Origin: an uncultured virus (IMG/VR IMGVR_UViG_2799112289_000001)
Lineage: Duplodnaviria; Heunggongvirae; Uroviricota; Caudoviricetes
Virus record (IMG/VR): IMGVR_UViG_2799112289_000001
Length of the DNA stretch: 31,126 nucleotides
Reading direction: 5' to 3' (one strand)
Positions 1,257 to 31,126 of this stretch are shown here, piece after piece. A model generated the notes under the pieces. It did no database searches. It was given only the letters and a program-made list of their open reading frames with translations, and was not told the DNA's origin. The position numbers were made by a program, and so were the translations under genes. Position 1 is the stretch's first letter. Each line of letters starts with the position of its first letter.

Positions 1257-1640
1257 TCAAGCCACCGGTTCCAATGCCTTTTCCTGTTCGATTTCGCGAG
1301 TTGTATCGTAATCGGTCTCACTAGACTGTTCATATTCGGCGGAGAAGAACTCGGCGGCGTGACGGCCGGCAGATGTCCTGTCGTTTTCGATCACGGCGGC
1401 GATGCGCCGGAACAGTTCGGCCTCAAAGCCGCCTGCGTTATTGACGTGGTTCGGCCGTGCCAACCGCGCGCCTCCGTCCAATCGGATCGCGGAGACATAA
1501 AACTCGCCATCGTAACCGTCTCCTGCCGATGTCAATTCGGCGCTGCCGTAGAGGAGCAGGCCCGTTTCCCAGCGGTCGCAGAGGTTGATAGTGAGTTCGT
1601 CGAATGAGTATTCACAAGAAAAAACGGCGGCAGACATCAT
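1257..1640 (-). CDS. Acidic hypothetical protein, leftward early operon
   Basis: ATG at 1640 overlaps the upstream TGA (TGATG coupling); 127 aa MMSAAVFSCEYSFDEL... Confidence 0.7.
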   Translation of the reverse strand: MMSAAVFSCEYSFDELTINLCDRWETGLLLYGSAELTSAGDGYDGEFYVSAIRLDGGARLARPNHVNNAGGFEAELFRRIAAVIENDRTSAGRHAAEFFSAEYEQSSETDYDTTREIEQEKALEPVA

Positions 1641-1972
1641 CACGCGGCCATTTGTGCAACTGATACGAGCGATTTGGCTGACAGGTGATGGATCTCCTCC
1701 ATCATCGTTGCCCGATCCCTGGCAATTGACATCCCAAAGGGTCTGGCGTCGATGCGCAGCAATTCCAGCCATAAGTTTGCAATTCGCTCGGCTCGGCTCT
1801 GGTCTTCAGTTTTGGTCGCCTCGGTTGCTTGTTGGCGTGCCCATCTCCAAGCCCTCGAGAGTGCACGGGCGAACCATTTACGCCGGGCGGCCGCGGTCGA
1901 AGGCCGGCATAATCGCGTGTCTTGGTGGTAGAGCGTCCAGGCGGTAGTCATGACATCGGGTATCGCAGGCAT
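1640..1972 (-). CDS. Hypothetical phage protein, first gene of leftward early operon
   Basis: AAGGGAAG RBS before ATG 1972; helical protein with VMTTAW...FARALSRAW motif of a kind seen in small phage early proteins. Confidence 0.7.
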   Translation of the reverse strand: MPAIPDVMTTAWTLYHQDTRLCRPSTAAARRKWFARALSRAWRWARQQATEATKTEDQSRAERIANLWLELLRIDARPFGMSIARDRATMMEEIHHLSAKSLVSVAQMAA

Positions 1973-2113
1973 GAATGACGTCTTCCCTTTCTGCACCCGT
2001 TGGGTTGCAACATCGATATTCATCCGACCTCCGATCCGGTTTCGCTGACTTCACGCAAGATCCCCAGACTTGCGCGGGCTCATTCCGTTTCGGGCCGCCG
2101 GCTCGTGAAAGGC

Positions 2114-2185
2114 AAACTGTCATATGGCACGATATGTGTCAACATATTTTGTGTCTTTTGATTGAAGAAAAACACAATAGATGTT
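2114..2185 (-). promoter_or_regulatory. Leftward promoter with three operator-like boxes (OL-like)
   Basis: TTGACA on minus strand (2142-2137), 17 bp spacer, weak TGn-CAGTTT -10; boxes GGCACGATATGTGTC 2126-2140, AACATATTTTGTGTC 2141-2155, AACACAATAGATGTT 2171-2185. Confidence 0.7.
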
Positions 2186-2274
2186 CTTTTGTTTCCGCTA
2201 AGTGCACCCTGTCGATTCGCTTCGCGTAAGCTGGAAGCGGATGGCTGACGGGGCAGGGGAAGAGCTGTGCCGCT

Positions 2275-3066
2275 CTATTTCCTGGCAATATGCCCGCAGA
2301 TGCGCCCGATGATCGTCAGCCGCGCCAATTCCACCGTAAAGGTTTCCAATGCCGGGTTGTCGGAGATGATCTTGACCTGGCTCGGCTGGGTGAAGGGAAC
2401 GCGCTGGAGGCGTTTGATCTGTGGTTCTGAATAGCCGTCGCTGATGGCATAGACCGTGTCGGTCGCCATCTGGTTCTGCGAGAGATCGACGATCACGCGG
2501 TCGCCGGGCATATAGGTGGGCTGCATGGAATCGCCGATCACTTCCATGATGATGGTATGGTTCGGCGATGCCTTTGCCTCGTTGCGCAAATAGCCCGAAG
2601 GAATGAGCCATTCCGCAACGATCTTGTGGCCAGCGACATTGCCCGCGCCGACTGGCAGATTGATGACTTCGCCGACAATGCCGCTGCCGGCGCCGAGTTT
2701 GACGTCCACCTCCGGCGTCGCGCCTTCGATCTTCGGCTGCCAATGCTCCCGGCTGTAGCTGAGCTCTTCGCCGCCCTCGGCAAATCCCTCATTGTATTGT
2801 TCATCGGGATCGAAGGAGGTGACCACCATGCGTGGTCCTGGCCGCTCCACTTTCCTTGAACCTTCGCCGGTCAGAAGATAGCCGGCAGTAGTGCCAAATT
2901 TCTTGGCATAGCGATCGGCGATCTCGGGTCCGAATTCGTTCTGACCGTTTTCGTGAGCCCGATAGGTGGACAGGCCGATACCAAGTGCCTCCGCCGCCTT
3001 CGTCGCCGAGGAATAATTTGCGGCTTCGCGCGCCGCCTTCAGTCGTTCGCCCATGGATTTCTGCAT
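2275..3066 (-). CDS. CI/LexA-like repressor: XRE HTH plus S24 autopeptidase domain
   Basis: N-terminal HTH (ERLKAARE...AAEALGIGLSTYRAHENG), cleavage-site-like LGAG, catalytic Ser motif VIGDSMQP, catalytic Lys motif IKRL, C-terminal IIGRI. Confidence 0.93.
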   Translation of the reverse strand: MQKSMGERLKAAREAANYSSATKAAEALGIGLSTYRAHENGQNEFGPEIADRYAKKFGTTAGYLLTGEGSRKVERPGPRMVVTSFDPDEQYNEGFAEGGEELSYSREHWQPKIEGATPEVDVKLGAGSGIVGEVINLPVGAGNVAGHKIVAEWLIPSGYLRNEAKASPNHTIIMEVIGDSMQPTYMPGDRVIVDLSQNQMATDTVYAISDGYSEPQIKRLQRVPFTQPSQVKIISDNPALETFTVELARLTIIGRICGHIARK

Positions 3067-3089
3067 GATCCAACACTCGCAAAATAATT

Positions 3090-3137
3090 AACATAAATCA
3101 TGTTGACATCGACATTAATAACAACATATTTTGTGTC
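3090..3137 (+). promoter_or_regulatory. Rightward promoter overlapped by two operator-like boxes (OR-like)
   Basis: TTGACA 3103-3108 with CATATT (16 bp spacer) or TATTTT (18 bp spacer); boxes AACATAAATCATGTT 3090-3104 and AACATATTTTGTGTC 3123-3137. Confidence 0.75.
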
Positions 3138-3224
3138 TATCAAGGTGTCGGCGGCGAAATTTGCTGCAGGCTGAAGTGCCGAGGCGGTTTGCGTTCGGCG
3201 AACAAGGGTTTTGGGAGTGATCGT

Positions 3225-3431
3225 ATGATCTCGACTAGGAAGGGCCGAATGTTGGATTTGAGCTCAGGTTATTTCGACTTCTTCTGGGGCTGCCCCGGCT
3301 GTGGCCGGGCATTGTCGATTGCGGAGGTGATCGAGCGGCACTGTGAAAGCTGCGACGAGCACGTGCAGCCAACGGAGATGTTCGATCCCGGTTCGATCGG
3401 GAGCAAGCCCGGTACGGAGAAGGCGATATGA
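3225..3431 (+). CDS. Small zinc-ribbon protein
   Basis: GGGAG RBS; CPGC-x13-CESC; alternative start 3249; stop overlaps next ATG (ATGA). Confidence 0.65.
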   Translation: MISTRKGRMLDLSSGYFDFFWGCPGCGRALSIAEVIERHCESCDEHVQPTEMFDPGSIGSKPGTEKAI

Positions 3432-3661
3432 GCGAGATGATTCAAGGTTTTCTTGCCTGTGTCGGTGCCGCCCTATTCCTGATCTGTGTTCTTGCGGCTC
3501 TGAAGCCGATCATTTCGTCATGGATATCTGACAGCGAAGAGCATGATGCCAGCGGAGCGCTGGAGGGAGATCTGGTCCATTTCCGGATGACCGAAGATGA
3601 GCATCAGCGAGAGGCCAACCAAAGAGGGCGTCGAGCACTTTGGTCATTCGGGCCACGCTAG
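3428..3661 (+). CDS. Small membrane-anchored hypothetical protein
   Basis: GGAGAAGG RBS, ATGA coupling, N-terminal hydrophobic helix followed by acidic tail. Confidence 0.65.
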   Translation: MSEMIQGFLACVGAALFLICVLAALKPIISSWISDSEEHDASGALEGDLVHFRMTEDEHQREANQRGRRALWSFGPR

Positions 3662-3764
3662 AGATTCCATGCGCCGTGAGCGCGGACGGCCTGCTGCTAG
3701 GCGTTTGAACCACTTCTAAAATTTAATTCGAAGAGCTGGCCCGAGGCGGCCAGAGGAGGTTTCC

Positions 3765-4055
3765 GTGAATGAATTTCAAATCGGTACTGAAGCTGTCGCC
3801 GGAGGTCATCTCGGCTGGATACGCAAGGTCCACCGCGCCACGAATGAAGTCCTGAGGGACCATCGCGGCGAACCCATCGTCTTCTCGACCCAGGATGCGG
3901 CCAAGGCGGCGGCCGGTGAGGCGATGGTTGCTTATCTCAACACACCGATGCTGCGCGATGGGGCGAGGGTGGAGGCGATGTCAAAGGCGGACGCCCTATT
4001 CAAGCCTAAGCATCCTTTTGCCGATGCCGGAGCTGCGAACGGGAAGGTGGCATGA
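3765..4055 (+). CDS. Hypothetical phage protein
   Basis: Strong GAGGAGG RBS before GTG; 96 aa. Confidence 0.7.
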   Translation: MNEFQIGTEAVAGGHLGWIRKVHRATNEVLRDHRGEPIVFSTQDAAKAAAGEAMVAYLNTPMLRDGARVEAMSKADALFKPKHPFADAGAANGKVA

Positions 4056-4111
4056 CCAAAAACTGCCGCTGATCGCGTTCATTTTTCTTCCGGAAGGGAG
4101 GCAATATACCC

Positions 4112-4528
4112 ATGAGCAAAGGCAGGCTCGACACTCTTCTTGACGGCCTCGGCATCAAGTTGGTCCCGGTTCATCGCCGTCGCGCCCCGGCGCAAAGCCA
4201 TGCGCGCGGCACAATGCAGGAGATTAGGGGGCAGCACGGCGACGGACATCTGGTCTTCGTGTTGCGCTGTATTCGCCAGACCGGCAACAATCGTGACGAA
4301 CTATGGTCAGACACGATTGGAGCCGTCTCCGACATCCTCGTTCAGCGTCAGGATTGGGCGCTGCAACGGCCTGGCGATCTGCTGGCCGCCTTCGACGATA
4401 TCGCGCTTGGCGCTTTGCGCGCCGACGCCGTGGCGCGGCGGCCGTGGCCGGTACGCGCGACGCTTCGGATTTTGATCTATCGGGAACTGGAGAAACGAGT
4501 TGATGCACCACAGCGCCTTGCAGTTTGA
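4112..4528 (+). CDS. Hypothetical phage protein
   Basis: AAGGGAGG RBS; 138 aa helical protein overlapping the next gene. Confidence 0.8.
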   Translation: MSKGRLDTLLDGLGIKLVPVHRRRAPAQSHARGTMQEIRGQHGDGHLVFVLRCIRQTGNNRDELWSDTIGAVSDILVQRQDWALQRPGDLLAAFDDIALGALRADAVARRPWPVRATLRILIYRELEKRVDAPQRLAV

Positions 4529-5168
4529 TGACTTGTCGGAACGCGCGGCTGAGATTGCCGATCTAAGCCTGATAGTTCGTGCCCGTTTCATTGAGGCTGC
4601 CGACACGATGATCCATCTTGACGTGCGCGGTGTACGCCCCGATCAGGTGCGCACGCTTTGGCCGGATGTTCTTCCCGAACCAACCGATCATGCCGACATT
4701 CGCATCCGTTATCGCCCGAACGCAGCGGCAATCAGTCGTGCCGAAGAAGTGCTGCAAGGTTGGCTGCTGACACATGTCAGGGATGAGGAGCGCCGTATCC
4801 TGCTTTCCCGATGGTCGGTCTGTCTTGCCGCGCCCCATGTCGCCGGTTCCTTCCGCGATTTTTGTGGCAAGACCGGCCGGGTGAGGCGAACGGCAGAGCG
4901 GCGGATTCAGAGTGAATTTCAAAGCGTCGCCAATGCGCTGCTCGCAATTTCGCCCTCACTGCAGGAACCCGATTGGTCACGCATATCGCCGATGATGCCG
5001 AATTCGGGTGGCAGTCTCGAGCGGGTGAAAACACCGCTCGTGAAGCATGAGACGCATTGGCTGCCGGAAGACGCAAAGCCGGTATTCGATGCGGCCAGCC
5101 CGGAACTGGCGGCATTGGCCAAGCGACTGGAACGAGAGAATCGGCGGCGTGCAAAGATGAGAGCTTAA
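4503..5168 (+). CDS. Putative late transcription regulator (DUF6362-like; Q-like position)
   Basis: RFIEAADT...WP...PNAAAISRAEEVL..W pattern recalls DUF6362; HTH-like segment SFRDFCGKTGRVRRTAERRI; last rightward gene before the packaging operon. Function inferred from position. Confidence 0.6.
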   Translation: MHHSALQFDDLSERAAEIADLSLIVRARFIEAADTMIHLDVRGVRPDQVRTLWPDVLPEPTDHADIRIRYRPNAAAISRAEEVLQGWLLTHVRDEERRILLSRWSVCLAAPHVAGSFRDFCGKTGRVRRTAERRIQSEFQSVANALLAISPSLQEPDWSRISPMMPNSGGSLERVKTPLVKHETHWLPEDAKPVFDAASPELAALAKRLERENRRRAKMRA

Positions 5169-5222: not shown

Positions 5223-5969
5223 TTAACCGCCCCGACTTTGCTGCGGCGGGTCCCCCTCAAATGCAAATACTCCGCTTGGCCTCGAGCCACCGGAGGCATC
5301 GCCAAAATCGGGCACGGCATATTCCGCCAGCAATCGCAGGCGCGAACGCGGCAGATGGGCGCGCCATGGATCTCCGATCAGGATTTCGATACCCTGCTGC
5401 AAGCAACGGTAAAGAAATGCGGTAACGTGTTCGGCAAGCGCGGCCTCATAAAAGAGATCGCCGACGCAGACAATGTCCGCGGCGGGAGGCTCGCCTTTCG
5501 TCAGATCGGCAAGAACCGGTAGAATTGTCACGTCATTGACGGCGGCATTCAACGCCATGGCGGCAACGGCATAGGGATCGACGTCGACCGCGACCACCTC
5601 CGTTGCGCCTGCCTTTGCGGCCGCTATGCCGACAATGCCTGAGCCAGCTCCCAGATCGAGCACGCGGCGGCCAACGACGGCGTCAGGCCGGTCGAGAAGA
5701 TACCGCGCCAGTACCAATCCTCCACCCCAATAATGCGCCCAGTAGGGTGAGCCAAACTCCTGATCCTGCTCGGCAAGCCGCCACAAGCCGCTTTGCGGTC
5801 CGGCCTTATGCAGGCGAATCTCTGGAATTGAAGGGACAGGCAGGACGGGGAGATTGGCGGAGATGAAGTTCCGCGCTGCGTCAATCTTCGAATCCCATTC
5901 GCTCATAGGTATCGTGCGGATCTGTAAGAGATCTTGATCGGGATGATGTCGATCGTGTTTATTGGTCAT
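5223..5969 (-). CDS. Class I SAM-dependent methyltransferase (PrmA/METTL20-like putative protein lysine methyltransferase)
   Basis: PYWAHYWGGG..LARY, motif I VLDLGAGSG, VAVDVDP, GDLFYE, GDPWR; start uncertain (5969 or 5906); the track's 6167 start is probably over-extended. Confidence 0.85.
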   Translation of the reverse strand: MTNKHDRHHPDQDLLQIRTIPMSEWDSKIDAARNFISANLPVLPVPSIPEIRLHKAGPQSGLWRLAEQDQEFGSPYWAHYWGGGLVLARYLLDRPDAVVGRRVLDLGAGSGIVGIAAAKAGATEVVAVDVDPYAVAAMALNAAVNDVTILPVLADLTKGEPPAADIVCVGDLFYEAALAEHVTAFLYRCLQQGIEILIGDPWRAHLPRSRLRLLAEYAVPDFGDASGGSRPSGVFAFEGDPPQQSRGG

Positions 5970-6026
5970 TCGCTCGTCTGATGCTGAAGCCGCTTCGAGG
6001 GAGGAGGAGAGTAATCTTGCTTCGAT

Positions 6027-6153
6027 CGTCGGACGATAGAATGCGATATTTTGATGTGATTTCAAATGATTATCTGTGGCGTCGTCAAAGATTTCCCAAT
6101 CCTTGCAGCCGCCTTGCCGATCAAGGGTGTCGCCAACTGCGCCGAATTGGGGT
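6027..6153 (+). pseudogene. Degenerate copy of part of the late-regulator gene (4884-5009), in the presumed late promoter region
   Basis: RRTIECDILM*FQ...ISQSLQPPCRSRVSPTAPNWG versus RRTAERRIQSEFQ...ISPSLQEPDWSRISPMMPNSG; one stop and one 1-nt indel. Confidence 0.6.
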
Positions 6154-6260
6154 ATTGATTTTGGCATGATGAGAACAGTTGCAGCGACGCACTGTTGACC
6201 GCAAGCGGCTCTTTGTCAGGCGCTTGTTTCCTTTCAACGTTCCATCGGAAATTCCAAAGC

Positions 6261-6608
6261 ATGTCCACTGCCGACAAGCCTGTCGCGCCGCGCAAGCCGC
6301 GTGTCCGCAGGCGCAAGACCGTGTCCGCCGGCGATACGCCGCTCGACTATATGCTGAAAGTCATGCGCGACGACGAGGCGGATCAGAAACGGCGGGATGA
6401 AATGGCGAAGATCGCCGCATCCTACGTTCACCAGAAACCGAGTGAACGCCAAAGTGGCGGGGCCAAGGGCGGCCAGAGTTTCACGATCGACTTAACCAAT
6501 GCCACGGATGAGCAGCTTGCGACACTCGAATCCCTCTTCGGTCCGCTTGCCGGACCCGGCGGCGATGATGGCAGCGATCCGCGAGGAGAAGACGAGACGC
6601 AAGGCTGA
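6261..6608 (+). CDS. terS: Terminase small subunit (putative)
   Basis: TPLDYMLKVMRD...RRDEMAKIAASYVH motif; immediately upstream of and overlapping terL. Confidence 0.7.
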   Translation: MSTADKPVAPRKPRVRRRKTVSAGDTPLDYMLKVMRDDEADQKRRDEMAKIAASYVHQKPSERQSGGAKGGQSFTIDLTNATDEQLATLESLFGPLAGPGGDDGSDPRGEDETQG

Positions 6609-8049
6609 GGCGGAGCAGGCCGAACTCGCCCGGCAGATTGCCGAGGATGCCGAGGGTATTCGGGCGCGGTGTCAGTCGCTTGTCGGTTTCGTCCGCGAGG
6701 CCTGGCACGTGATCGAACCATCCGTCGACTATGTCTATGGTTGGCATATCGACGCCATCTGCCGACATCTCGAGGCGGTGACGTCCGGCGAGATCACACG
6801 GCTGCTGATCAACGTGCCGCCTGGGACGATGAAGTCGCTGCTCTGCGGTGTCTTATGGCCCGCTTGGGAATGGGGACCGAAGAACATGCCGGAGATGCGT
6901 TATCTCGGCTCATCCTATTCGGAACACTATGCCAAACGCGATAACAGGCGCATGCGCGATCTCGTCGCCTCGGAATGGTATCAGACGCTCTGGGGCGACC
7001 GGGTTAAGCTGACGAGGACGGGCGAGACGGCCTTTGCCAATACACGCACCGGCTTTCGCCAGGGCGTGCCGTTTTCACGGCTAACGGGTGGGCGTGGCGA
7101 CCGAGTGATCATCGATGACCCGCATTCCGTCGATGGTGCGGAATCCGAAGCGGAACGGCTGTCGACCATCCGCACCTTCCGTGAATCCGTGCCGACGCGG
7201 CTCAATGATCCGCAGCGTTCGGCAATTGTCGTGATCATGCAGCGACTGCACGAGGCGGATGTTTCCGGCACGATCCTGACGCTTGGGCTCGGCTACGAGC
7301 ATCTGATGTTGCCGATGGAGTTCGAGCCGGAGCGTCGTTGCCGAACATCGATCGGGTTTGCCGATCCGCGCACGGAGGAGGGCGAGTTGCTCTTTCCCGA
7401 GCGGTTTCCGCGCGCCGTCGTGGAGCGGGATAAGGTGCCCCTCGGTTCCTATGCCGTCGCTGGGCAGTTTCAACAGCGGCCATCCCCGCGCTCCGGCGGC
7501 TTGTTCCAGCGTGGCGACTTCGAAATCGTCGATGCCGTGCCGGCGGGCGCGAAGCGCTGTCGCGCCTGGGATTTTGCGGCCTCGAAGGAACGTCCGGGCC
7601 GCCAGCCGGACTGGACGGTGGGGCTGCGCATGGCTGAGGCCAATGGCGTCTTTTATGTCGAAACTATCGCCCGTGGCCGTTGGTCGCCGGCGGAGGTCGA
7701 GCGCAATTTGAAGAACATGGGGACGCAGGACGGACCGACGGTGATGATCCGCATGCCTCAGGATCCCGGTGCCGCCGGCAAGGCCGATGCCGAAACGAAG
7801 ATCAAGCTGCTTGCCGGCTTTCCAATAAAGGTTTTGTCCATCACCGGTGACAAGGCGACGCGCGCCAAGCCGGCTTCCGCGCAGGCGGAGGCTGGAAATG
7901 TCAAATTGTTGCGTGGTGATTGGAATGAGGCGTTCCTCGATGAAGTCTGCGCCTTTCCAAATGCGCAGTTCGACGATCAGGTGGATGCTTTCGCCGACGC
8001 GCTGAACGAGTTGGCGCTGGGCTCCTCCTTCAGCTTCAAGAATTTCTAG
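6565..8049 (+). CDS. terL: Terminase large subunit
   Basis: Walker A LLINVPPGTMKS, Walker B VIIDDP, coupling motif IMQRLH, nuclease AWDFA and DDQVDA; start uncertain (6499-6568). Confidence 0.95.
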   Translation: MMAAIREEKTRRKAEAEQAELARQIAEDAEGIRARCQSLVGFVREAWHVIEPSVDYVYGWHIDAICRHLEAVTSGEITRLLINVPPGTMKSLLCGVLWPAWEWGPKNMPEMRYLGSSYSEHYAKRDNRRMRDLVASEWYQTLWGDRVKLTRTGETAFANTRTGFRQGVPFSRLTGGRGDRVIIDDPHSVDGAESEAERLSTIRTFRESVPTRLNDPQRSAIVVIMQRLHEADVSGTILTLGLGYEHLMLPMEFEPERRCRTSIGFADPRTEEGELLFPERFPRAVVERDKVPLGSYAVAGQFQQRPSPRSGGLFQRGDFEIVDAVPAGAKRCRAWDFAASKERPGRQPDWTVGLRMAEANGVFYVETIARGRWSPAEVERNLKNMGTQDGPTVMIRMPQDPGAAGKADAETKIKLLAGFPIKVLSITGDKATRAKPASAQAEAGNVKLLRGDWNEAFLDEVCAFPNAQFDDQVDAFADALNELALGSSFSFKNF

Positions 8050-8098: not shown

Positions 8099-9496
8099 AT
8101 GGGACACGTACTCTCGATGGTTCGCGATGGGCTGGTGAGCCTTGCGTCTCGCATGGGGACCGACCGAGACAAGGCAGCCTCGGTCTTCTATGCCCAGCCA
8201 ATTTTGACCGACGAACAGATCATTGCCGCCTACCGTGGCTCTTGGCTGCCGCGCAAGATCGTCGACATTCCAGCGCTGGATAGTTGCCGCAAATGGCGCA
8301 ACTGGCAGGCCGAGAGTGATCAGATCGGGGCAATCGAGGCCGAGGAGCGCCGGCTGAACCTGCGCGGCAAAGTACTGGAAGCGTCTAAGAAGGGGCGGCT
8401 CTTCGGTGGCGCGGCTTTGTTCATCGGCGCCGGCGACGCCGATCCCTCGCGGCCGCTTGATGTCGAGCGCATCGGCAAAGGCGGATTGAAGCATCTGACG
8501 GTGCTGACGCGTCGTCAGCTTGCCGCGGGAGAGATCGACCGCGACCCGACCTCGGAATGGTATGGCAGGCCGAAATTTTACACGCTGACCGGCGCTAACG
8601 GAGTGCAGGTCGCGATCCACCCGTCGCGACTGGTGATCTTCAACGGCGCCATGGCGCCGGACGAGGATTTTGGCGGGACGTTGGGGCAGGCCAGTCACGG
8701 CTGGGGCGAGAGCGTGCTCACTGCAACCTTAGATGCCATCAAGAATGCCGACAGCACGGCGGCCAATATCGCCAGCCTCGTCTTCGAAGCGAAGATTGAC
8801 ATTATCAAAGTGCCGCAGTTCTCGGCGAATATAGGCAATCAGGCCTACGAGGATGCCGTGTTGCGCCGCTATACGCTGGCCAACACCATTAAGGGGGTAA
8901 ACGGCACGCTGATCCTTGATGCCGAGGAAGAATACGATAGCAAGAGTGCGCCGCTAGCAGGACTGACTGACATCCTCATGGCCTTCATGCAGGTCGTCTC
9001 CGGTGCCGCCGATATTCCAGTCACCCGCTTGCTCGGCCAATCCCCCGCGGGCCTCAACGCCACCGGCGACGGCGATATGAAGAACTATCATGATCGCATT
9101 CAGGCGATCCAGGAACTCGACTTCACGCCCGCCATGTCCCGCCTGGACGAATGCCTCATTCGTTCCGCAACCGGCGTCCGCGATCCAGATATCTACTACG
9201 CGTGGGCGCCCTTGGAACAGATGAGTGAGAAGGAGAAGGCCGACATGTTCAAGACCAAGGCCGACGCCGCGCGAGCCTTGTTCGGTTCAGCTTCCGGACA
9301 GGAGATCATCTCGCGGCAAGCGTTGTCGCAGGCACTGGTTAATACGTTTGTCGAGGACGGATCGTTGCCGGGGCTGGAGGCGGCAATCGAGGAATTCCGC
9401 GGGTTGGACCAGGTAGGTCAGCCAGCGACTGTTCCTGAAAACAACGGGGAACATAACCCGGCATCGGGCAAACCGCTGAGAAGCACCGCCGCCTAG
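8099..9496 (+). CDS. Portal protein (DUF1073/HI1409 type)
   Basis: KIVDIPA.D, RLFGGA, IHPSRL, GAADIPVTRLLGQSPAGLNATGDGD..NY.D motifs; follows terL. Confidence 0.9.
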   Translation: MGHVLSMVRDGLVSLASRMGTDRDKAASVFYAQPILTDEQIIAAYRGSWLPRKIVDIPALDSCRKWRNWQAESDQIGAIEAEERRLNLRGKVLEASKKGRLFGGAALFIGAGDADPSRPLDVERIGKGGLKHLTVLTRRQLAAGEIDRDPTSEWYGRPKFYTLTGANGVQVAIHPSRLVIFNGAMAPDEDFGGTLGQASHGWGESVLTATLDAIKNADSTAANIASLVFEAKIDIIKVPQFSANIGNQAYEDAVLRRYTLANTIKGVNGTLILDAEEEYDSKSAPLAGLTDILMAFMQVVSGAADIPVTRLLGQSPAGLNATGDGDMKNYHDRIQAIQELDFTPAMSRLDECLIRSATGVRDPDIYYAWAPLEQMSEKEKADMFKTKADAARALFGSASGQEIISRQALSQALVNTFVEDGSLPGLEAAIEEFRGLDQVGQPATVPENNGEHNPASGKPLRSTAA

Positions 9497-12142: not shown

Positions 12143-12151
12143 TTTGATCTT

Positions 12152-12179
12152 TCCTCTCTCCGTTTCGACGGGGAGAGGG
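12152..12179 (+). promoter_or_regulatory. 12-bp UUCG-loop hairpin after major capsid gene
   Basis: TCCTCTCTCCGT-TTCG-ACGGGGAGAGGG (two G-U pairs); no U-tract. Confidence 0.6.
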
Positions 12180-12212
12180 CCTGCGTCCTCTTCATTCACC
12201 GCCGGAGTTCTC

Positions 12213-13311: not shown

Positions 13312-13315
13312 TGCA

Positions 13316-14203: not shown

Positions 14204-14206
14204 TCC

Positions 14207-20271: not shown

Positions 20272-20274
20272 CCG

Positions 20275-21320: not shown

Positions 21321-21426
21321 GCCGGCACGGAAATTACGCCTTTCCTCATCACCTATCGGTGACTTGTCGCTGTCGATCTCGTCGGCGGCGCACTCTCTTC
21401 ATGCGTCATTCGAGGTCGCCAGATCC

Positions 21427-24400: not shown

Positions 24401-27400
24401 ACGTCGGCGTAGGCGCGACTGGCCTCGCCTCCAGAAATTCGAACATCTTTCCCGTCCTTCCTGGCGAGCAGTATTTCCTGCAGGTGTTTGCGAAGGCGGT
24501 GGGGGCACCCAACAATCCCCTCACGGTGCGTATGCGCTTTCTGCTGGCAGACAAGATATCACTCGTCAGCGCACCAACTGTCGGGAACTACACGGCTGCC
24601 GACACGGCATATATTGAGAGGAACGCGGTTATCACCGTTCCGGCCACCGCTATATACGCATGGATCGACGTAACGGTGGCAGCCGGGTCTATCACCACAG
24701 GTGGCTACGCTCTTGGTTTCATTTCCTGCCAGCGCCGCGATACGGGCAATCTGATCGTTGACGGTGCGATCACGGCTACCAAGATCGCAGCCAATGCCGT
24801 TGCGGCGGCCAATATCGCGGCAGGCGCGATCACTGCTGACAAACTGGCTATCGGCAGCGGCGGCAACTTCCTGTCGAATTCTGATTTCTCGGCTGGCCTT
24901 GCGAATTGGAGCTATGAATACTCCAACGGTCCTGGATTTACGGTGTCCTACCGTACCGACACCTACGCACCTACAGGCGGTGCGATGCAGATTTTCTGCG
25001 CGAACAACACGCAAGGTATCGAATATGGTGTCGCTCCTACCATCGCTACAGTCAACTCCACAGGGTTCACGATAGGGCAGGTCGCCCGATACCCCTGCGT
25101 GGCGGGGCAATGGTTTGAGTTTTCAGGCTATTATCTGGGCCTGAATAGCAACGGCCTTCTGCCCTATATGGGCTTTTTCGATGTAAATGGCGCAGCGTTA
25201 GCATACCCGAACGCGGGTATTCTCCCAGCAGCGCAAAACATCGACCCGCATTTCAACTTGGCCAACTACCAAAGGTTCTGGTTCAAGGCGCAAGCTCCCG
25301 CTGGCGCGGTGACGTGCGTAGCGTTCCTGCGCCACAAAGGCACTCTGCCGAGTCAGGCAAACAGTTATATCTTCCTGACGCGGCTGTATTTCGGCGAGGC
25401 TAACGCGAACCAGTCACAGCCCACCCCCTGGTCACCATCTGGCATCACGATGGTTTCGGGCGGCAATATCATCACAGGGGCGATCACGGCGGATAAGATT
25501 GCGGCTAACACCATCACTGCCGCTCAAATAGCTGCGGACACCATCACCGGCGCTCAAATCGCTGTAGGCGCTATCTCAGCCTCTGAAATAGCTGCCGATG
25601 CCATCACGGCGGCCAAATTGGCATCGAACTCCGTCACCACGGACGCGCTCGCGGTTGGCTCTGGCAAGAACCTGCTGCAGAACGCAGGTTTCACTATGGG
25701 CATGGATTGCTGGGTGATCAGCTTCGCGAGTGGCCCGATCCCCAGCCCAATTTTTCGTATCCGTGCCGTCACTGAAACATGGGCCGGACCGAACTGCCCG
25801 ACCCTGATGCTTTCTTATGGCGCACCGTCAGGCAACAACTATTACAGTGACGTTCAATGGTTGCGGCCTGACGCCCCGACGCTGCCGAACAGCCTCAAAT
25901 ATGGCGTGCCCTGTGCTCCGGGCGACTGGTTCGAAGTGTCCGCCTACGTCTCTGCCCATCGCTGCTTGGTCGAGCTGCGGCTGCAGTGGATCGGTTCAGA
26001 TGGCCTCGCTGTCGGCTATTCCACGGCCAATCAGAACAACGGTATAGCTGGCAGCCCGACCAATCCGGACCTCTGGACACGTCTCAGGTGCGTTGGTGCT
26101 GCTCCTGCCAATGCGGTCGCGGTGGCCATTCATGTCCGCAAATGGGAAACGATCGCCGGCCAAACTGATAGCTATATGTTCCTCAACAAGCCGATGCTCT
26201 GCCGTTGCCCGGCGAACGCGTCGGAGTTTACGCCCTGGAGCGATGGTGGCGTGGTGATGATCACCAACGGCGGCATCGTCGCCGACGCCATCACGGCCGA
26301 CAAGATTGCCACCAACGCCGTGACGGCGGATGCGATCGCAGCCAATGCGGTGACAGCCGGCAAGATCGCGGCGGGTGCGGTGACTGCAACCACCATTGCG
26401 GCCGCGACGATCACGGGTGACAAGTTGGCGGCCAATACGATCGGTGCTTCCCAGATCGCGGCCGATGCCATCACCGCAAAGCAGCTCGTGCTGACCGACT
26501 TCTCCAACATGGCCGACAACGGCTGGCAGGCAGGCAGCATCGACGGTTGGACGACGCAAAACAAACAGAACTTCTACCTCGACAACGGCCAGGGCGATGC
26601 TTCGGGCTACCTCCTGCAGTCGCTCGGCCGAGACTGCGCCTATTCTAACTTCGTCGCGGTCTCGCCCGGTGAAACCTATGCTTTTGATGTTTGGGTTCTT
26701 AATACCGATGCGAACTTGGCCAATGTCTATGCCTTCGCGCGCTCGCCTTCAGGCACGGTGTCGCCTGTACTAATTACTGGAACGAACACCAAAAACGCAT
26801 GGGTGCGCCTTCAGGGCAAATACACCGTGCCCTCTGGCATTACAGCGCTTGCCATGGATTTGCAGGTCAACAAGACCGCAGGAGCAGGGAACTCTTGCTA
26901 CTGGTCGCGGCCCGTCATGCGCCGGGCCGTCAGTGCCGAGCTGATCGTCGACGGCGCGGTTACCGCCAACAAGATCTCGGTGAACAGCCTTGATGCGCTT
27001 ACCGCCAATCTCGGTGCGGTCAATATCAGTTCGGCCGTCATCGGCTCGCTGCAGGTCGGCACGTCTAACATCTCCGGAGGAGCGGTCACTGCTGTCGGCG
27101 CCGGACGCGTCGCTGGCACGCAGACCATCGGCGCTGGCGGGACCATCAATCTTGTGAGCTGCGTCGTCAATGTTGCCGGCGATGGCCGCGTCGTGATCGA
27201 CGCCATGACACTCGGCCAATTCAACCAGAATGGCGGTAGCCAGAACTCCCAGCCGGTCGGCTGCAACATCTTCCGCGACGGGGGCGCGATCTTCAGCCAG
27301 ACCTACTATCTCGGCGTTGTTCAGACCGTCGTCACTAGCACAGGTGGCAGCAACAGCCAGACCTCTCAAGCGACCTATACGGCCGGCCTTGTGGCGGTCT

Positions 27401-27519
27401 CGGGCCTATATGACGCTCCCGGCGCGGGCAACCATACCTACATCCTGCAGATTTTTTGCCCCGGCAACACCATCGGCTGGAACGAAAGCAACATCACCGC
27501 GACAGCGCTCAAGAGGTAA
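21427..27519 (+). CDS. Tail tip/host-specificity protein (gpJ-like) with modular repeat and CBM-like C-terminal region
   Basis: GAGG RBS before ATG 21427; 2030 aa; LYDIRKDS, W..SSNPA, W.AAANACD J-like motifs, then repeat blocks and beta-rich domains. Confidence 0.88.
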   Translation: MKFLILLLNVLGFWLMADAAHADPISLAITAIAQAIGSIGSIGIIGKLVLTVALNVGLSLIEKAMAKKDQPQPAGTKLEISMGDDHPMSFVIGSYATAGKRKYAGTWGDDGKTPNAYFTDVIEIGSLPNYAGERGLTSVWIDDQEVGVLWEEPHPDGRGFPVLQYRVDGKDYLWIKFLDGTQTSADPFLMAQFGANADRPWKPTMIGRGCQVVILTARYNSDLFSGIPAGLYQPHPIQLYDIRKDSSAGGNGVHRWDNPASWEPSSNPAIMIYNLARGIYYGQEWVCGGQNIAAFCLPAANWMAAANACDAGVTLDDGSAEPAFRAGYDVQCDQQPLDVVSELLKGCNGRMAEVGGIFKILISAPGGAVYSFSDDDIVVTEEQDFQPFPSLSDTYNAIEATYPEPAEKWATKDAPGRYNADLEAQDGNRRLPAQIQLPAVPFANQVQRVGLAMIQDYRRFRVQQIALPPDAYPLEPNDVVSWTSARNGYDEKKFLVVKVEPQPNFLIVVTLKEVDPADYDWHSGLQLPIATGWIGPIAPPSQPMVGWTVEPATVKDAGGIDRRPAIKISCAPDMDDVERVWVQVRLKETGDIVFDSDSTRYASPFSWVLSGQWTLSNTDYEARGRYVPKSNRATDWSAWLAVKTPNVLIQSGDVLDGAIIASKIADAAVTAEKIMDEAVSNLKLADAAVSTAKIEVAAVTAQVLADQAVISSKLADAAVTAQKLASEAIDATKFASSIEPVGIATGESLPTTKSTTTIVWNGKLYRWDGTAYVASVASTDITGQLASSQIANGAIGNPQLAALAVDASKLADGSISAAKLAAAAVDATKLASSIKAVEIVSALPSTGNVEGRFVYLTTDEKLYRYTGSAWTSAVPATDVAGQIVSTQITDGAISTPKLAAGAVIASTIAAGAVTAGAIAANAVTTGNIAAGAVTAGQIAAGAITADKMVLGDFTNRVENPNFGAGDVSWSKSTGITIVNDPANAYVGSWYMNVGVGATGLASRNSNIFPVLPGEQYFLQVFAKAVGAPNNPLTVRMRFLLADKISLVSAPTVGNYTAADTAYIERNAVITVPATAIYAWIDVTVAAGSITTGGYALGFISCQRRDTGNLIVDGAITATKIAANAVAAANIAAGAITADKLAIGSGGNFLSNSDFSAGLANWSYEYSNGPGFTVSYRTDTYAPTGGAMQIFCANNTQGIEYGVAPTIATVNSTGFTIGQVARYPCVAGQWFEFSGYYLGLNSNGLLPYMGFFDVNGAALAYPNAGILPAAQNIDPHFNLANYQRFWFKAQAPAGAVTCVAFLRHKGTLPSQANSYIFLTRLYFGEANANQSQPTPWSPSGITMVSGGNIITGAITADKIAANTITAAQIAADTITGAQIAVGAISASEIAADAITAAKLASNSVTTDALAVGSGKNLLQNAGFTMGMDCWVISFASGPIPSPIFRIRAVTETWAGPNCPTLMLSYGAPSGNNYYSDVQWLRPDAPTLPNSLKYGVPCAPGDWFEVSAYVSAHRCLVELRLQWIGSDGLAVGYSTANQNNGIAGSPTNPDLWTRLRCVGAAPANAVAVAIHVRKWETIAGQTDSYMFLNKPMLCRCPANASEFTPWSDGGVVMITNGGIVADAITADKIATNAVTADAIAANAVTAGKIAAGAVTATTIAAATITGDKLAANTIGASQIAADAITAKQLVLTDFSNMADNGWQAGSIDGWTTQNKQNFYLDNGQGDASGYLLQSLGRDCAYSNFVAVSPGETYAFDVWVLNTDANLANVYAFARSPSGTVSPVLITGTNTKNAWVRLQGKYTVPSGITALAMDLQVNKTAGAGNSCYWSRPVMRRAVSAELIVDGAVTANKISVNSLDALTANLGAVNISSAVIGSLQVGTSNISGGAVTAVGAGRVAGTQTIGAGGTINLVSCVVNVAGDGRVVIDAMTLGQFNQNGGSQNSQPVGCNIFRDGGAIFSQTYYLGVVQTVVTSTGGSNSQTSQATYTAGLVAVSGLYDAPGAGNHTYILQIFCPGNTIGWNESNITATALKR
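23392..26990 (+). repeat. Blocks of degenerate 30-bp (10-aa, ~GAITADKIAA) coding repeats separated by unique domains
   Basis: At least six blocks near 23392-23640, 23770-23930, 24070-24270, 24760-24850, 25470-25655, 26270-26490. Confidence 0.85.
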
Positions 27520-27523
27520 CTCC

Positions 27524-27955
27524 GTGACAGCGTTAGAAGACCGAACGATTCACTACATCATCCATGGCCCGGACGGCAAAATCCGTCAGAGCGGCGACTG
27601 CGCCTTGAGCCTACTGCCGGATTATGCCGGCATCTATGGCGAGGGCTTTAAGGCTATCGAAGTGCGAGCCGACCAATACCGTCGCGATATCGACGCGCAT
27701 TGCTATGTCCTCGACGGCATCATCACCACCAAGGGCACAGCCGTTGACGTGACGGATTTCACCATCAAGGCCGATGGCACGGAGGAGGTGCGCTTTGCCG
27801 TGCCGGCCGGAACCTCGGTCATTCATGAGGGCCGGATCGTCGCCGTCGCGGACAATGTCTTCGAATTCGTCACCGATGTGCCCGGCGATCACAAATTTTC
27901 TTTCCAGTCACCGGCCGCCTATCGCGATTTCGAGGTGACGATTCATGCGGTTTGA
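27524..27955 (+). CDS. Tail fibre-associated hypothetical protein
   Basis: AAGAGG RBS before GTG 27524; G.IRQSG, IKADG.E motifs; directly after the tip gene. Confidence 0.7.
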   Translation: MTALEDRTIHYIIHGPDGKIRQSGDCALSLLPDYAGIYGEGFKAIEVRADQYRRDIDAHCYVLDGIITTKGTAVDVTDFTIKADGTEEVRFAVPAGTSVIHEGRIVAVADNVFEFVTDVPGDHKFSFQSPAAYRDFEVTIHAV

Positions 27956-28364
27956 TCATCGTGCCGACCTCAGCCAGCTCAAGACACAGATGATGGCCGA
28001 AATCGATCATCAGGTCGCCGTCGTTCGCGCCCTGTTCGTTACCCTCATACCCGGCCAGGAAGCCGTCTATTCGATCAAACGGCAAGAGGCTCTGTTGATC
28101 GTTGCCGATCTGCAGCAGGGTGCCAACGTACCCGATGGAGAGACGCCTAACCTTACTGCCGAAGCGGCCGACGATAGCGTTAGCCGTTTCGAGAAGGCCG
28201 TCGAGATCTTGACGCGAGATCAGCATTGGGCGACGGGGGCGCAGATGATCGAAAGCCGCCGCCGATCGGCAAAGGCCGCCCTCGCAGTCGCAACCACAGC
28301 CCCCGATATCCGCGCCGCCGCCGCCATCGATTGGCGGGACGTGCGCGCTTATGCCCAAACCTAA
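27945..28364 (+). CDS. Tail fibre-associated hypothetical protein
   Basis: GAGG RBS; PGQ..VY..K..EA and IE..R..AK motifs. Confidence 0.7.
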   Translation: MRFDHRADLSQLKTQMMAEIDHQVAVVRALFVTLIPGQEAVYSIKRQEALLIVADLQQGANVPDGETPNLTAEAADDSVSRFEKAVEILTRDQHWATGAQMIESRRRSAKAALAVATTAPDIRAAAAIDWRDVRAYAQT

Positions 28365-28380
28365 GCAAAAAGGACTGCCC

Positions 28381-29034
28381 ATGTATCGCATTGACAGCAT
28401 GTATGAACCGATGGTGGAGGCGCTGCTTGCAGCCCGTGCCGAGAACAAGGCCGATCGCTGGATGGCGTGCGTCGCCTTCTGGCTCGGCCGGCAGCAGATC
28501 TACAATGTCGCCGATTACTGGCTTGCGCTCGGCGCCAAGATCACTGCGGGACTGCCGGCCGCCGACAAGGATGCAGTCCTTGATCAGCTCAGCAAGCAGG
28601 AAACGGCTTTGGTCGATGCCGCTGGCGATTGGCCGGAAACGCCGTCCAGCCTTGTTTCAGTCGTCGCCGGTTGGTCACCGGAGCCCGTTCCCGTCGATCT
28701 GCAGGCTTATGCTGCAGCCAAGCGCTACGCGGTCGAGACTGGCGGCATCGTGCTTAACGGCATGTCGGTGATGACCGATCGCCAGAGCCAGGCGCTGATC
28801 ACCGGAGCCTATGCCTACGTCCAGGCTAACCCGACCGTCACCGTGAGTTTCAAGACCCCAAGCGGCTTCGTCAATCTGGCGGCCGCTGAGGTGACCGCTG
28901 TCGCAAATGCGGTCGGCGCCCATGTGCAGGCGAGCTTCGCTGCAGAAGATGCGGTTGTCCAAGGCATCGCGGCTGGCACGATCAAGACGGCGGCGGATAT
29001 TGACGCCTTTGCGTGGTCGGCGGTTGCAGCGTAA
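28381..29034 (+). CDS. DUF4376-like tail fibre assembly-associated protein
   Basis: AAAGGA RBS; KRY..ETGGI, TDR.SQ..ITGA, HVQA.F..E motifs. Confidence 0.75.
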   Translation: MYRIDSMYEPMVEALLAARAENKADRWMACVAFWLGRQQIYNVADYWLALGAKITAGLPAADKDAVLDQLSKQETALVDAAGDWPETPSSLVSVVAGWSPEPVPVDLQAYAAAKRYAVETGGIVLNGMSVMTDRQSQALITGAYAYVQANPTVTVSFKTPSGFVNLAAAEVTAVANAVGAHVQASFAAEDAVVQGIAAGTIKTAADIDAFAWSAVAA

Positions 29035-29230: not shown

Positions 29231-29430
29231 CGATGATCTCGCCGGGCGGTGAAGCCGTACAGAGTGGTCTCTGCGAAGTTGCAGAAACGTGACCCCCCAG
29301 TTGGAATAAAAGAGCCTAAAAGTTTCCGTCCGCTATGGAGGAACTAGGCGGCTAGATTGCCAGTATTGAGGAAGATCCAAGCGATCTTCAGAGCTCTGTC
29401 GCCGAATCTACAACAGCCAAAGGACCATTC

Positions 29431-30063
29431 ATGGATCGCGCGAAATTCTTCGCGGCGGTGCGTTTGCCGTTGTTCGGCGGGCGGCTGTCGCAAAATCAGG
29501 TGAACGGCATCGAGGCCATCCTCGACAGCTGGGAGGCGAGCCCCTTCGATGTGCGCTGGCTCTCCTACATGCTGGCGACGACCTATCACGAAAGCGACAA
29601 CACGATGTGCGCCATTGTGGAAAATCTCAACTACTCTGCCGCGGGCCTCAAAGCGATATTTCCGAAATGCTTCACGGCAGCGCAAGCGGCGACCTATGCC
29701 CGTCAGCCGCAACGCATAGCGAATCGCGCCTATGCGAACCGCATGGGCAATGGCGACGAGGCAAGTGGCGATGGCTGGCGCTATCGTGGGCGGGGTCTGG
29801 TGCAGATTACCGGTCACGACAACTATGAAAAATATGGCATTGCTGATGAACCCGACCTGGCACTCGATCCGGCCAAGGCTGTCGAGATCTTGCGCGACGG
29901 CATGATCAATGGCCGATTCACCGGCAGAAGGCTGGCCGACTGCTTCGGCGCGACAGTGACCGACTGGATCGGCGCTCGCAAAATCATCAACGGCACTGAT
30001 CGGGCCGCGGACATTGCAGGCTATGCCAAGTCCTTCGCCGCAGCGATCGAAGCAGCGCGTTAA
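29431..30063 (+). CDS. Endolysin, glycoside hydrolase family 19 (chitinase-like)
   Basis: YMLAT.YHES, ENLNYSA, GDGWRYRGRGLVQITG..NY, ARKIING motifs; AAAGGA RBS. Confidence 0.92.
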   Translation: MDRAKFFAAVRLPLFGGRLSQNQVNGIEAILDSWEASPFDVRWLSYMLATTYHESDNTMCAIVENLNYSAAGLKAIFPKCFTAAQAATYARQPQRIANRAYANRMGNGDEASGDGWRYRGRGLVQITGHDNYEKYGIADEPDLALDPAKAVEILRDGMINGRFTGRRLADCFGATVTDWIGARKIINGTDRAADIAGYAKSFAAAIEAAR

Positions 30064-30126
30064 TCGGCATCGCCGGACCGCGACAGCACAACACAATCAT
30101 TTTCCCTTTAGCAAAAGGATTATCAC

Positions 30127-30444
30127 ATGCGCGCTCTGCTCTTTGCGGCGGCGGCCGGGTTTGCTTTGTCCGGTTGTCAGACTGCATCGCTCAATAGCTC
30201 GATCCAGCAAAGTCTTCAGAAGGCCTGTCAAGCATTGGAAACAGCGCATGCCGCTTTCATGTCCATCGCCACGCTCGGTGCAGTCAAGCAGTCGGTCATC
30301 GACAAAGAAGCCGCGGTTTACATCGGCGTTCGAACACTTTGCGCTGACCCGGAGCACGAAACAGCAGCGGAAGTCCTGGCACAAGTGGCGCAAGCCTACG
30401 CGACAATCAATGCTGCGCTCAACATCGCCCGACAGGTACAATAA
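30127..30444 (+). CDS. Lysis-cassette lipoprotein (possible spanin)
   Basis: Lipobox LSG-C at residue 17, helical body; directly after endolysin. Confidence 0.7.
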   Translation: MRALLFAAAAGFALSGCQTASLNSSIQQSLQKACQALETAHAAFMSIATLGAVKQSVIDKEAAVYIGVRTLCADPEHETAAEVLAQVAQAYATINAALNIARQVQ

Positions 30445-30471
30445 ATTTCACCTTTTCATAAAGGAAACCTT

Positions 30472-30723
30472 ATGTTGAATACCAATGCTCTGCACAATGC
30501 TTTGAATATACTGATCACGTTGTCGGCGTTGTTGGTCGCCATTCTGCTGGCGACGGGCTGCACGCAGCTTGGCGACGGCACACTGGAATGTTCGCAATCC
30601 CTTATCGGTCCGAGTTTCACGGCCTATGTCGTTGCCGCCCTCGGGGCGCTCAAGATGGTAATCAATATTACCCGCGACGGGCTTCCCGGCTTGGTGAAGC
30701 CTCAGCCGCCAGTCGTTAAATGA
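30472..30723 (+). CDS. Two-TM membrane protein (holin/antiholin-like)
   Basis: AAGGA RBS; two hydrophobic helices around a Cys-x9-Cys loop; lysis cassette context. Confidence 0.65.
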   Translation: MLNTNALHNALNILITLSALLVAILLATGCTQLGDGTLECSQSLIGPSFTAYVVAALGALKMVINITRDGLPGLVKPQPPVVK

Positions 30724-30796
30724 GAGCGGCCTCCTTGGCTATCTTAGTTGGAAGGAAGCCGTAGATTCTCATTTCAAGATCTTGCAGAGACAGGTC

Positions 30797-31126
30797 ATGA
30801 CGGTCAACGAATTTCTCGATGCGTTAGGCATCAAGGTCGGTGTTGTCATCGCTGGCCTCTCCGGCGGCATTTTGCGCGGCCTATCTCGTCGTCGATACAC
30901 CACGCGAGAAATCGTCGCATCACCCATCTGCGGGGCGCTGGCGGCGGCTTATTTGACAGAGCCGGCGCTTTACTATCTGCGTGCCGTCAATTGGCCATTG
31001 CCGCAAAAAGACGTTGCGGCCATGAATGCCACGGCCTTCGTGGTCGGTGTCTGCGCCATGTGGATCGCCGACTTGATTTTCGATTCGATTTCGCGGTGGA
31101 TCAGAGGCGGAAGGGCCGTGCCCTGA
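30797..31126 (+). CDS. Putative holin (three TM segments)
   Basis: Three hydrophobic segments, IAG..GG motif, basic C-terminus. Confidence 0.65.
   Translation: MTVNEFLDALGIKVGVVIAGLSGGILRGLSRRRYTTREIVASPICGALAAAYLTEPALYYLRAVNWPLPQKDVAAMNATAFVVGVCAMWIADLIFDSISRWIRGGRAVP

Follow-up and report, generated by a model that had tools for sequence, protein, structure and literature searches.

A maintained virion and lysis gene set in an apparently immobilised siphovirus remainder of the Rhizobium tropici/rhizogenes group

PBSX of the Bacillus subtilis group is a defective prophage that acts as a phage-like bacteriocin and has small heads; its particles are lethal to sensitive strains and contain short random pieces of host DNA. 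The particles of gene transfer agents (GTAs) take up host DNA irrespective of where their own genes lie. Lateral transduction is known from excision-delayed prophages of Staphylococcus aureus, which later excise and are fully mobile. The GTAs treated in the available part of one account package 4-14 kb of DNA, too small for the genes that encode them, and their TerS has no specific DNA-binding domain (PMC11841831). Conserved defective ('grounded') prophages under purifying selection are described as well, in the accessible portion of a further source (PMC6379469). Here we compare with these systems a phage-like, siphovirus-type unit of 29.9 kb, which spans positions 1257-31126 of a stretch of 31,126 nucleotides (IMG/VR record IMGVR_UViG_2799112289_000001; hereafter the window, meaning the whole stretch analysed). 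The window corresponds to G000:C1:570187-601312 within a 2.56-Mb contig of a Rhizobium genome, and the element carries a cI-like repressor at its left and a holin as its last gene. We hold it moderately probable that this element is the immobilised remainder of a temperate siphovirus of about 50 kb, which is inherited mainly vertically, whose virion programme is under selection, and which would form particles that carry host DNA or kill. No published description of it was found in the literature searched, including genome papers of the R. tropici group, which is not proof of absence.

The element occupies a fixed locus in one group of related hosts. In a sample of 173 Rhizobium species genomes, a close capsid gene (at least 94% identity) is present in 26, the window's genome included. 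In 21 of these 26 carriers the capsid gene and host metH lie on one contig, 26-33 kb apart and in the same relative orientation; the other five have the two genes on separate contigs or a missing metH match. Synteny across relatives, which the initial annotation had proposed as a check of its suggestion that the locus is a domesticated GTA or PBSX-like killer particle, is in this way borne out for at least 21 species. All carriers are among some 45 species with a MetH that shares at least 91% identity with that of the window genome, and they are confined to a single subclade, the R. tropici/rhizogenes group, with related loci known from Rhizobium lusitanum, R. tropici, R. rhizogenes, R. hainanense, R. 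freirei, R. multihospitium and R. mayense. Copies of at least 94% identity were never found at a second locus in any of the 173 genomes.

Fifteen full copies were fetched for comparison, which makes 16 with the window. All 15 can be aligned collinearly with the window between about 1250-1350 and about 31110; their nucleotide identity to it, 67-92%, is similar to that of the flanks. Maximum-likelihood trees were built for the host flank (4.3 kb), for the left module from cI through portal (5.1 kb) and for the head module (3.3 kb), and each divides the copies into the same two clades, of seven and nine species. The synonymous divergence (dS) of cI through portal equals that of the host flank, at about 0.4-0.7 among members of the window's clade and 1.0-1.5 in comparisons with the second clade. 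The congruence with the host tree that had been named as a further test holds for the left and head modules, which co-diverge with the host flank, and fails in part for the head module, which has undergone at least one exchange between species. As judged from these sequences, inheritance is mainly vertical, with module exchange between species, and the element thereby shows one part of the definition of a GTA, a phage-derived structural cluster that is chromosomally fixed and vertically inherited.

Homology between species begins at 1245-1350 and ends at 31110-31129; as it ends at the holin stop codon, the end of the window is the true right end of the element. On the left, the leftward operon meets a host MEKHLA gene (620-1090; Pfam E 2.9e-48), as initially read, followed outwards by a sulfatase gene, a tRNA-Met gene 2.8 kb off and more host genes. 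On the right, host metabolic genes including metH extend over 20 kb, beginning 300 bases past 31126. Proteins from the open reading frame (ORF) listing of the window were scanned against Pfam, PHROGs and NCBIfam, and none of these scans detects an integrase, recombinase, helicase or primase within the element. This agrees with the claim that the early region (1257-5168) is devoid of such genes; beyond weak matches, the families recognised there are limited to a repressor with helix-turn-helix (HTH) and S24 domains and to DUF6362. Integrase and replication genes with att repeats just beyond 31126, which had been put forward as evidence that would count against domestication, were looked for and none was found, with host genes on both sides. 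A candidate integrase just outside the window was ruled out, given that the 20 kb on either side hold host genes only.

The wider genome gives a similar picture. A six-frame search of the 8.0-Mb genome with hidden Markov models returned six tyrosine recombinase matches, the nearest at C1:2226603 (1.6 Mb off), and three serine recombinase matches, the nearest at C1:1030869 (0.43 Mb off), with no recombinase inside 400 kb of the element. The variable left flanks of four relatives were scanned as well, and none (0/4) contains an integrase. No direct repeat of more than 12 bases links both ends, and no tRNA-Met fragment is present at the right end, here or in the 15 other genomes. The integrase with att sites and the replication module expected of a lambdoid temperate prophage are absent, and the lack of own excision, integration and replication genes fits a second part of the GTA definition, with the caveat of a weak DnaD-like match of the early protein e4.

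The size of the element points to what may have been lost. The best 40 records of phages with a related capsid protein, at 34-55% identity, have lengths of 45-56 kb throughout, and the element, at 29.9 kb, resembles such a phage from which about 20 kb with the genes for integration, recombination and replication has gone. Among 50,697 phage records there is no close free phage of the element; the closest phage TerL is 48.3% identical, from a Rhizobium phage, and the capsid reaches at most 55.5%. Capsid homologues of 82-86% identity at other loci and in other genera were considered as a full-length version of the element and rejected, since the head module alone is shared and they belong to different mosaic prophages.

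The gene content that remains is maintained. Over the 15 full copies, 296 of 300 core gene-by-genome cells are intact, with an open frame that covers 85% or more of the protein, and the four exceptions differ at a protein end only. Across 17 structural and lysis genes the ratio of nonsynonymous to synonymous divergence (dN/dS) has a median of 0.147 (n=249), at a host dS of about 0.7-1.3, compared with 0.052 in the host flank, so that the proposed dN/dS check likewise points to purifying selection; the left regulatory genes have the lowest values in the element, with a median of 0.065. Because none of the 16 full copies has an integrase (16/16), the divergence among them built up in an immobile state. 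A neutral simulation with random substitution over 6796 structural codons (0.1-0.5 substitutions per site, 200 runs per rate) yields 55-180 in-frame stops, with a minimum of 34. At the level of sequence, these data show purifying selection in most carriers on the switch and on the genes for packaging, head, tail and lysis. That the virion and lysis programme has been kept complete there speaks for continued particle formation.

The same figures bear on a competing explanation, that of a cryptic prophage in slow decay which has no particle function, whose structural genes look conserved because related elements or phages repeatedly renew them by recombination, and whose usual fate is deletion. 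We regard this as rather unlikely. The divergence arose while the element was immobile, yet the median dN/dS is as low as stated at dS values up to more than 1, and almost all core cells are intact although tens of stops would be expected under neutrality. Neither a close free phage nor a close copy at a second locus is available as a source among the records and genomes searched, and refreshment by recombination needs intact donors, which would themselves be under selection.

Several observations nevertheless weigh against a virion programme kept by selection, and the explanation by decay draws on them too. Sixteen species of the same subclade hold remnants only, of at least seven deletion types, in which all structural and lysis genes have been removed; this repeated deletion of the structural half implies that particle production is dispensable in many lineages. 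The tape measure gene contains an in-frame TAG in 2/15 full copies (G088 and G099), and an insertion resembling an insertion sequence (IS) lies between the chaperone and tape measure genes in 1/15 (G180). The head module unites G127 and G181, a grouping rejected by the host flank (p-AU 4.7e-5) and by the left module (2.7e-4), and the host grouping is in turn rejected by the head-module data (p-AU 7e-5), where the groups compared were named after the trees had been seen. The tail genes from the terminator to DUF6950 (13772-21320) have a low and flat dS of 0.07-0.6 irrespective of clade, a pattern that indicates either exchange of genes between species or constrained synonymous sites; dS of the tail chaperone gene is 0.07-0.20, and the tail tree is compressed. 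A mosaic low-GC segment with patchy distribution belongs to the same category of evidence. Of the domesticated element proposed at the outset, the immobile and long-maintained character stands, while the sporadic distribution and pseudogenised structural genes named as contrary evidence are partly found, in the form of the 16 remnants, the tape measure stops and the IS-like insertion.

The deletions that gave rise to the remnants run, in window coordinates, from 9084 to 33259 in six species, from about 5870 to 33259 in two and from 10003 to 30684 in two, and from 9084 to 30797, from 9801 to 30797, from 6457 to 30662 and from 6399 to 30748 in one species each, and two species have smaller relics. 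The junction of 9084 with 33259, which joins the portal gene to a host gene resembling an apurinic/apyrimidinic (AP) endonuclease, is identical in G014, a member of the window's clade, and in G019, G117, G056, G183 and G147 of the second clade. In G014, G019 and G117 the sequences are clade-specific right up to the junction, with about 5-9 bases of imperfect microhomology, and G100 has the same left endpoint, 9084. This common junction represents either a recurrent hotspot or an old polymorphism. As regards the damaged full copies, the tape measure genes of G088 and G099 have three interrupting stops, all TAG and two of them in a CAG-rich context, which could be real nonsense mutations, sequencing errors or cases of suppression. 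The insertion of G180 is about 7 kb long, holds two copies of a 390-aa ORF together with IS3-like ORFs, and looks like a composite transposon within the late operon.

The remnants retain cI through DUF6362 in 13 of 16 cases, with this part of one more lying outside the fetched stretch. As the structural half is often deleted and the regulatory half retained, the benefit of the element would be conditional, and room is left for a further alternative, in which the benefit resides in the left regulatory part (repressor, e3, e4, DUF6362 and methyltransferase), maybe as superinfection immunity or defence, and the structural half is a tolerated passenger. The low dN/dS of the left genes, the conservation of the switch region in remnants and the match of the methyltransferase to a defence-system model are all in keeping with this. 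A passenger would decay, however, and 13 of 15 copies have about 25 kb of structural genes with neither stops nor frameshifts, at dN/dS of 0.02-0.35, which in our estimate makes this alternative improbable.

The regulatory part begins with a minus-strand gene (1257-1772; 171 aa; dN/dS 0.09-0.36), the stop of which coincides with the left edge of interspecies homology and the product of which has no family match in Pfam, PHROGs, NCBIfam or PADLOC. The cI/LexA-like repressor (2275-3066, minus strand) combines an N-terminal HTH with a C-terminal S24 self-cleaving peptidase (PF00717 1.5e-15, PF12844 1.6e-8, phrog_4 1.2e-38), and its amino acid identity is 86-98% among 20 copies, at dN/dS of 0.02-0.09. 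It is followed by a divergent promoter/operator region of about 120 bases (3067-3188), in which a promoter scan predicts TTGACA-16/18-CATATT/TATTTT, a good sigma-70-like promoter, together with the palindrome AACAT-N5-ATGTT. The blocks ACATAAATCATGTTGACAT, TCAACATAATTTGTGT and TATCAAG of this region are kept in 28/28 aligned copies, remnants included. Three small plus-strand early genes come next: a zinc-ribbon-like gene in the position of Cro (3189-3431; weak PF12773 match), a second gene (3428-3661) and a third, e3 (3765-4055; dN/dS 0.02-0.16), which is less variable than the first two; a phrog_32205 match falls within this set. Motif searches found no CtrA box in the element and two alphaproteobacterial LexA boxes, a number at chance level, with none at promoters.

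Further to the right, a minus-strand gene (5223-6167) encodes a protein related to S-adenosylmethionine-dependent methyltransferases (PF06325 1.7e-14 and other class I methyltransferase models). It is the only one of 15 uncharacterised proteins run through PADLOC that gave a match (mad2 7e-14, type II methyltransferase 1e-4), and is probably, by these family matches, an orphan DNA methyltransferase.

Between these genes lie e4 (4112-4528, plus strand), which encodes a highly conserved helical protein of 138 aa, and the gene for the DUF6362 protein (4500-5168, plus strand; PF19889 2.9e-8; dN/dS 0.05-0.10). The e4 protein is 59-93% identical to 27 homologues from several Rhizobiales genera, occurs in 8/400 sampled genomes of the order and is nearly always accompanied by DUF6362, which is itself found in several Rhizobiales genera. 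Among the 50,697 phage records DUF6362 has no match and e4 two marginal ones only, and sequence searches of the PDB with DUF6362, e4 and TerS returned nothing significant. The AlphaFold2 model of DUF6362 (predicted local distance difference test, pLDDT, 74) aligns best in VIA-align with the Q21 antiterminator complex (6jnx_P; Z 6.7, 121 aligned residues), and also with many chains of sigma-factor region 4 (Z 4-6.6) and with AlpA (Z 5.0), a Z range that is prone to noise in view of how often helical proteins align by chance; Foldseek returned nothing for this model at E < 0.001. We tentatively suggest on the basis of the model that DUF6362 may be a late-gene transcription regulator with an HTH like that of sigma region 4, a role that agrees with the position of its gene just ahead of the late operon. 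The two proteins are an uncharacterised prophage pair that merits a study of its own.

The model of e4 (pLDDT 90.8) has as its best structural match a DnaD-like domain (2zc2_B), weak at Z 4.8; a clear PDB relative was not found, and neither was any Foldseek match at E < 0.001. This faint resemblance makes a replication role conceivable, which counts against the loss of all replication functions, and it enters into the last alternative, that of a still autonomous temperate phage which relies on host Xer or RecA, on a new kind of recombinase encoded by one of the uncharacterised end genes, or on e4 as a DnaD-like organiser of replication by which host helicase is recruited. The intact morphogenesis genes and switch, the several end and early proteins outside known families and the exchange of the head module between species would all suit such a phage. 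In two of four distant Rhizobiales prophages with e4 and DUF6362, a DnaB-type helicase gene is located directly upstream of e4, with genes for DNA methylases, a cII-like protein, cI and RecT/PDDEXK proteins further left. The window has no gene between 4055 and 4112, the corresponding place, and lacks the helicase, methylase, cII and RecT/PDDEXK genes of those prophages. The missing helicase stands against autonomy, as do the restriction of close copies to a single locus in a single subclade, the identical clades and matching dS of left module and host flank, the absence of att repeats and of a tRNA fragment, and a length far under that of phages with related capsids. We therefore consider continued autonomy very improbable.

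The late genes form an intact series from TerS through endolysin, with every ORF unbroken and overlapping stop and start codons common (for example at 12707/12710, 13063/13066, 19624/19627 and 20895/20898); the ORF list and the family scans here corroborate the initial description of unbroken packaging, head, tail and lysis genes with coupled codons. All these genes are on the plus strand. TerS (6195-6608) has weak PHROG matches, phrog_641 included, and TerL (6499-8049; phrog_38 4.4e-73, PF17289) is 86-96% identical and unbroken in the 15 full copies and in five remnants. The portal gene (8099-9496; PF06381 3.6e-115) is followed by those for a DUF2213 protease (9554-10669; PF09979 1e-55), a cement protein (between the protease and capsid genes; PF22758 1.3e-30) and the major capsid protein (11171-12142; PF09950 9.7e-66), the last with 94-99% amino acid identity and dN/dS of 0.02-0.06 among close copies. 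The connector and proximal tail region (12114-15501) comprises the adaptor Ad1, head closure, an 82-aa ORF, neck, tail terminator, tube and a pair of tail assembly chaperones, with matches to phrog_477, 161, 169, 179, 158 and 313, PF13554 and PF23812.

The low-GC variable insert that follows (15502-16975; GC 0.49-0.51) contains a minus-strand moron (16481-16936; 151 aa). As a mosaic segment it extends from 15502 to 18743, which takes in the N-terminal portion of the tape measure besides the moron, and it is common to G022, G139, G001, G181, G180 and G113 at 82-90% and replaced elsewhere, across host clades. The tape measure gene (16976-19627) opens a plus-strand group (16976-21320) that also includes Dit (distal tail), a tail protein and DUF6950 (PF06791, phrog_8892, phrog_1302, phrog_2048, PF22262). 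No sheath family was detected among the tail genes with Pfam and PHROGs. A giant host-specificity or fibre protein of 2106 aa (21199-27519, plus strand; start uncertain) and three downstream tail-fibre-associated genes, together 21199-29034 on the same strand, match PF13550, PF02018, phrog_5616 (7e-165) and PF14301. The fibre is a single unbroken ORF of 1645-2376 aa in 15/15 copies at an identity of just 59-78%, intact yet variable as expected of a part that still meets cell surfaces, and PF13550 occurs in the whole genome solely in this fibre.

Lysis genes, again on the plus strand, complete the element: an endolysin (29431-30063; phrog_181 9.6e-57), a lipoprotein (30127-30444), a protein with two transmembrane domains (30472-30723) and, as the last gene, a holin of 109 aa with three transmembrane domains (30797-31126; phrog_2359 1.3e-6). 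The frame of the holin was set by the three-base periodicity of conservation in 16 genomes, and the frame that starts at 30748 (30748-31125 in the window) was dropped as last gene in its favour. The ORFs 15437-15805, 15805-16008, 30014-30478 and 30748-31230 have dN/dS above 1 and are probably not genes.

With regard to the origin of the locus, ten species outside the subclade have the locus without the element, and in G123 about 1.6 kb of sequence separates the 3' end of tRNA-Met from the conserved right flank. The picture that emerges is one of an old integration beside tRNA-Met, with other islands inserted later between the tRNA and the element. The 3' side of tRNA-Met up to window position 1257 is a hotspot with different islands in different species, namely sulfatase and MEKHLA genes in the window, hydrolase and LysR genes in G022, and genes for an ABC transporter and a two-component system in the second clade; in G165 a 16-base repeat of the tRNA 3' end is found 2.2 kb downstream of a partial tRNA copy. 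At the other edge, a nitronate monooxygenase gene (window 31428-32519) directly 3' of the holin is seen only in the window's clade and in some remnants, and in the second clade about 146 bases separate the end of the element from the conserved right flank; this difference at the right edge is a later insertion or deletion.

Our preferred reading of an immobilised and selected siphovirus remainder can be cast as a sequence of steps. A temperate siphovirus of about 50 kb would have entered the chromosome beside the tRNA-Met gene in the ancestor of the R. tropici/rhizogenes group, where the modules for integration, recombination and replication were subsequently lost. Upon DNA damage, cleavage of the S24 repressor would release the early operon, the last gene of which, the sigma-4-like DUF6362, would turn on the late operon. 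Particles would then assemble and be released by holin and endolysin. The absence of own excision and replication, along with a capsid lineage of about 50 kb compared with an element of 30 kb, suggests that a headful terminase would fill the heads from the chromosome in situ, and such filling would lead to particles with host DNA, in the manner of GTAs or of lateral transduction, or to PBSX-like killers. A GTA-like or PBSX-like function is plausible.

A more specific version appears possible, although less probable: a gene-transfer element of independent evolutionary origin, for which packaging in situ is obligate and the remnants serve as landing pads. The SOS response would here cause the unexcised cluster to fill heads of about 50 kb by headfuls from near terS rightwards, so that its own structural genes and the neighbouring chromosome would be exported to other strains of the R. 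tropici group. Left-part remnants in the recipients would provide homology for regaining the structural half, which could account for the exchange of head and tail modules and for copies that are either intact or deleted, in an all-or-nothing manner.

Altogether, the retained element suggests that these bacteria still use it, perhaps for DNA transfer between cells or for killing rivals. Its hosts are agriculturally used bean symbionts and plant-associated rhizobia, the strains are culturable, and the approximately 26 species with an intact cluster next to at least 16 sister species with defined deletions constitute a natural experiment on what a host gains from a virion factory. The element also gives a context to e4 and DUF6362 as widespread uncharacterised families of the Rhizobiales. 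If particles are made, this would be a domestication of a phage independent of those that led to RcGTA and BaGTA, with unusual features, namely an SOS-type switch of its own, a head of full size and its confinement to one compact locus.

PBSX offers a close parallel in organisation. Both are clusters of about 30 kb at a fixed locus in related species, with their own repressor, a late activator (tentatively assigned here), retained terminase, head, tail and lysis genes, a variable tail-fibre region and neither integrase nor replication genes, so that the description of a PBSX-like element as a repressor-controlled cluster of such size without integration and replication genes at a conserved locus applies here. 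The two appear to have no sequence relationship, however. The tail of the rhizobial element is of siphovirus type, with no sheath gene found, its repressor is of the S24 self-cleaving type, and its capsid lineage comes from phages of 45-56 kb, in contrast to the small heads of PBSX.

Like the element, RcGTA is a cluster of head and tail genes of phage origin that passes on vertically, is kept by purifying selection and has disappeared from many lineages; the two also have in common the PF13550 host-specificity domain and an alphaproteobacterial host. The head families differ, being PF06381, PF09979 and PF09950 in the element, and GTA_TIM (PF13547) is absent from the genome by a search that was positive in the Caulobacter control, which upholds the initial view of a locus independent of RcGTA. 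Moreover, lysis genes and a cI switch belong to the element as parts of one 30-kb unit, in which no CtrA box was found. By its gene families the element is not a relative of RcGTA. In view of the capsid lineage it is also unlikely to have the undersized head of GTAs, which cannot hold the genes that encode it, an argument that takes the genomes of the best 40 related-capsid phages as a proxy for head size.

Lateral transduction provides a model for an unexcised prophage with headful terminase packaging in situ, from pac into adjacent host DNA. In contrast to the prophages involved, the element has no excision genes, and no gene was identified in it for in situ replication. The grounded prophages resemble it in their mode of maintenance, as they are likewise immobilised by the loss of mobility genes, vertically inherited and selected for the genes that remain. 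Such remnants usually keep a few genes, whereas here a 25-kb morphogenesis and lysis set is intact at a host dS of about 1.

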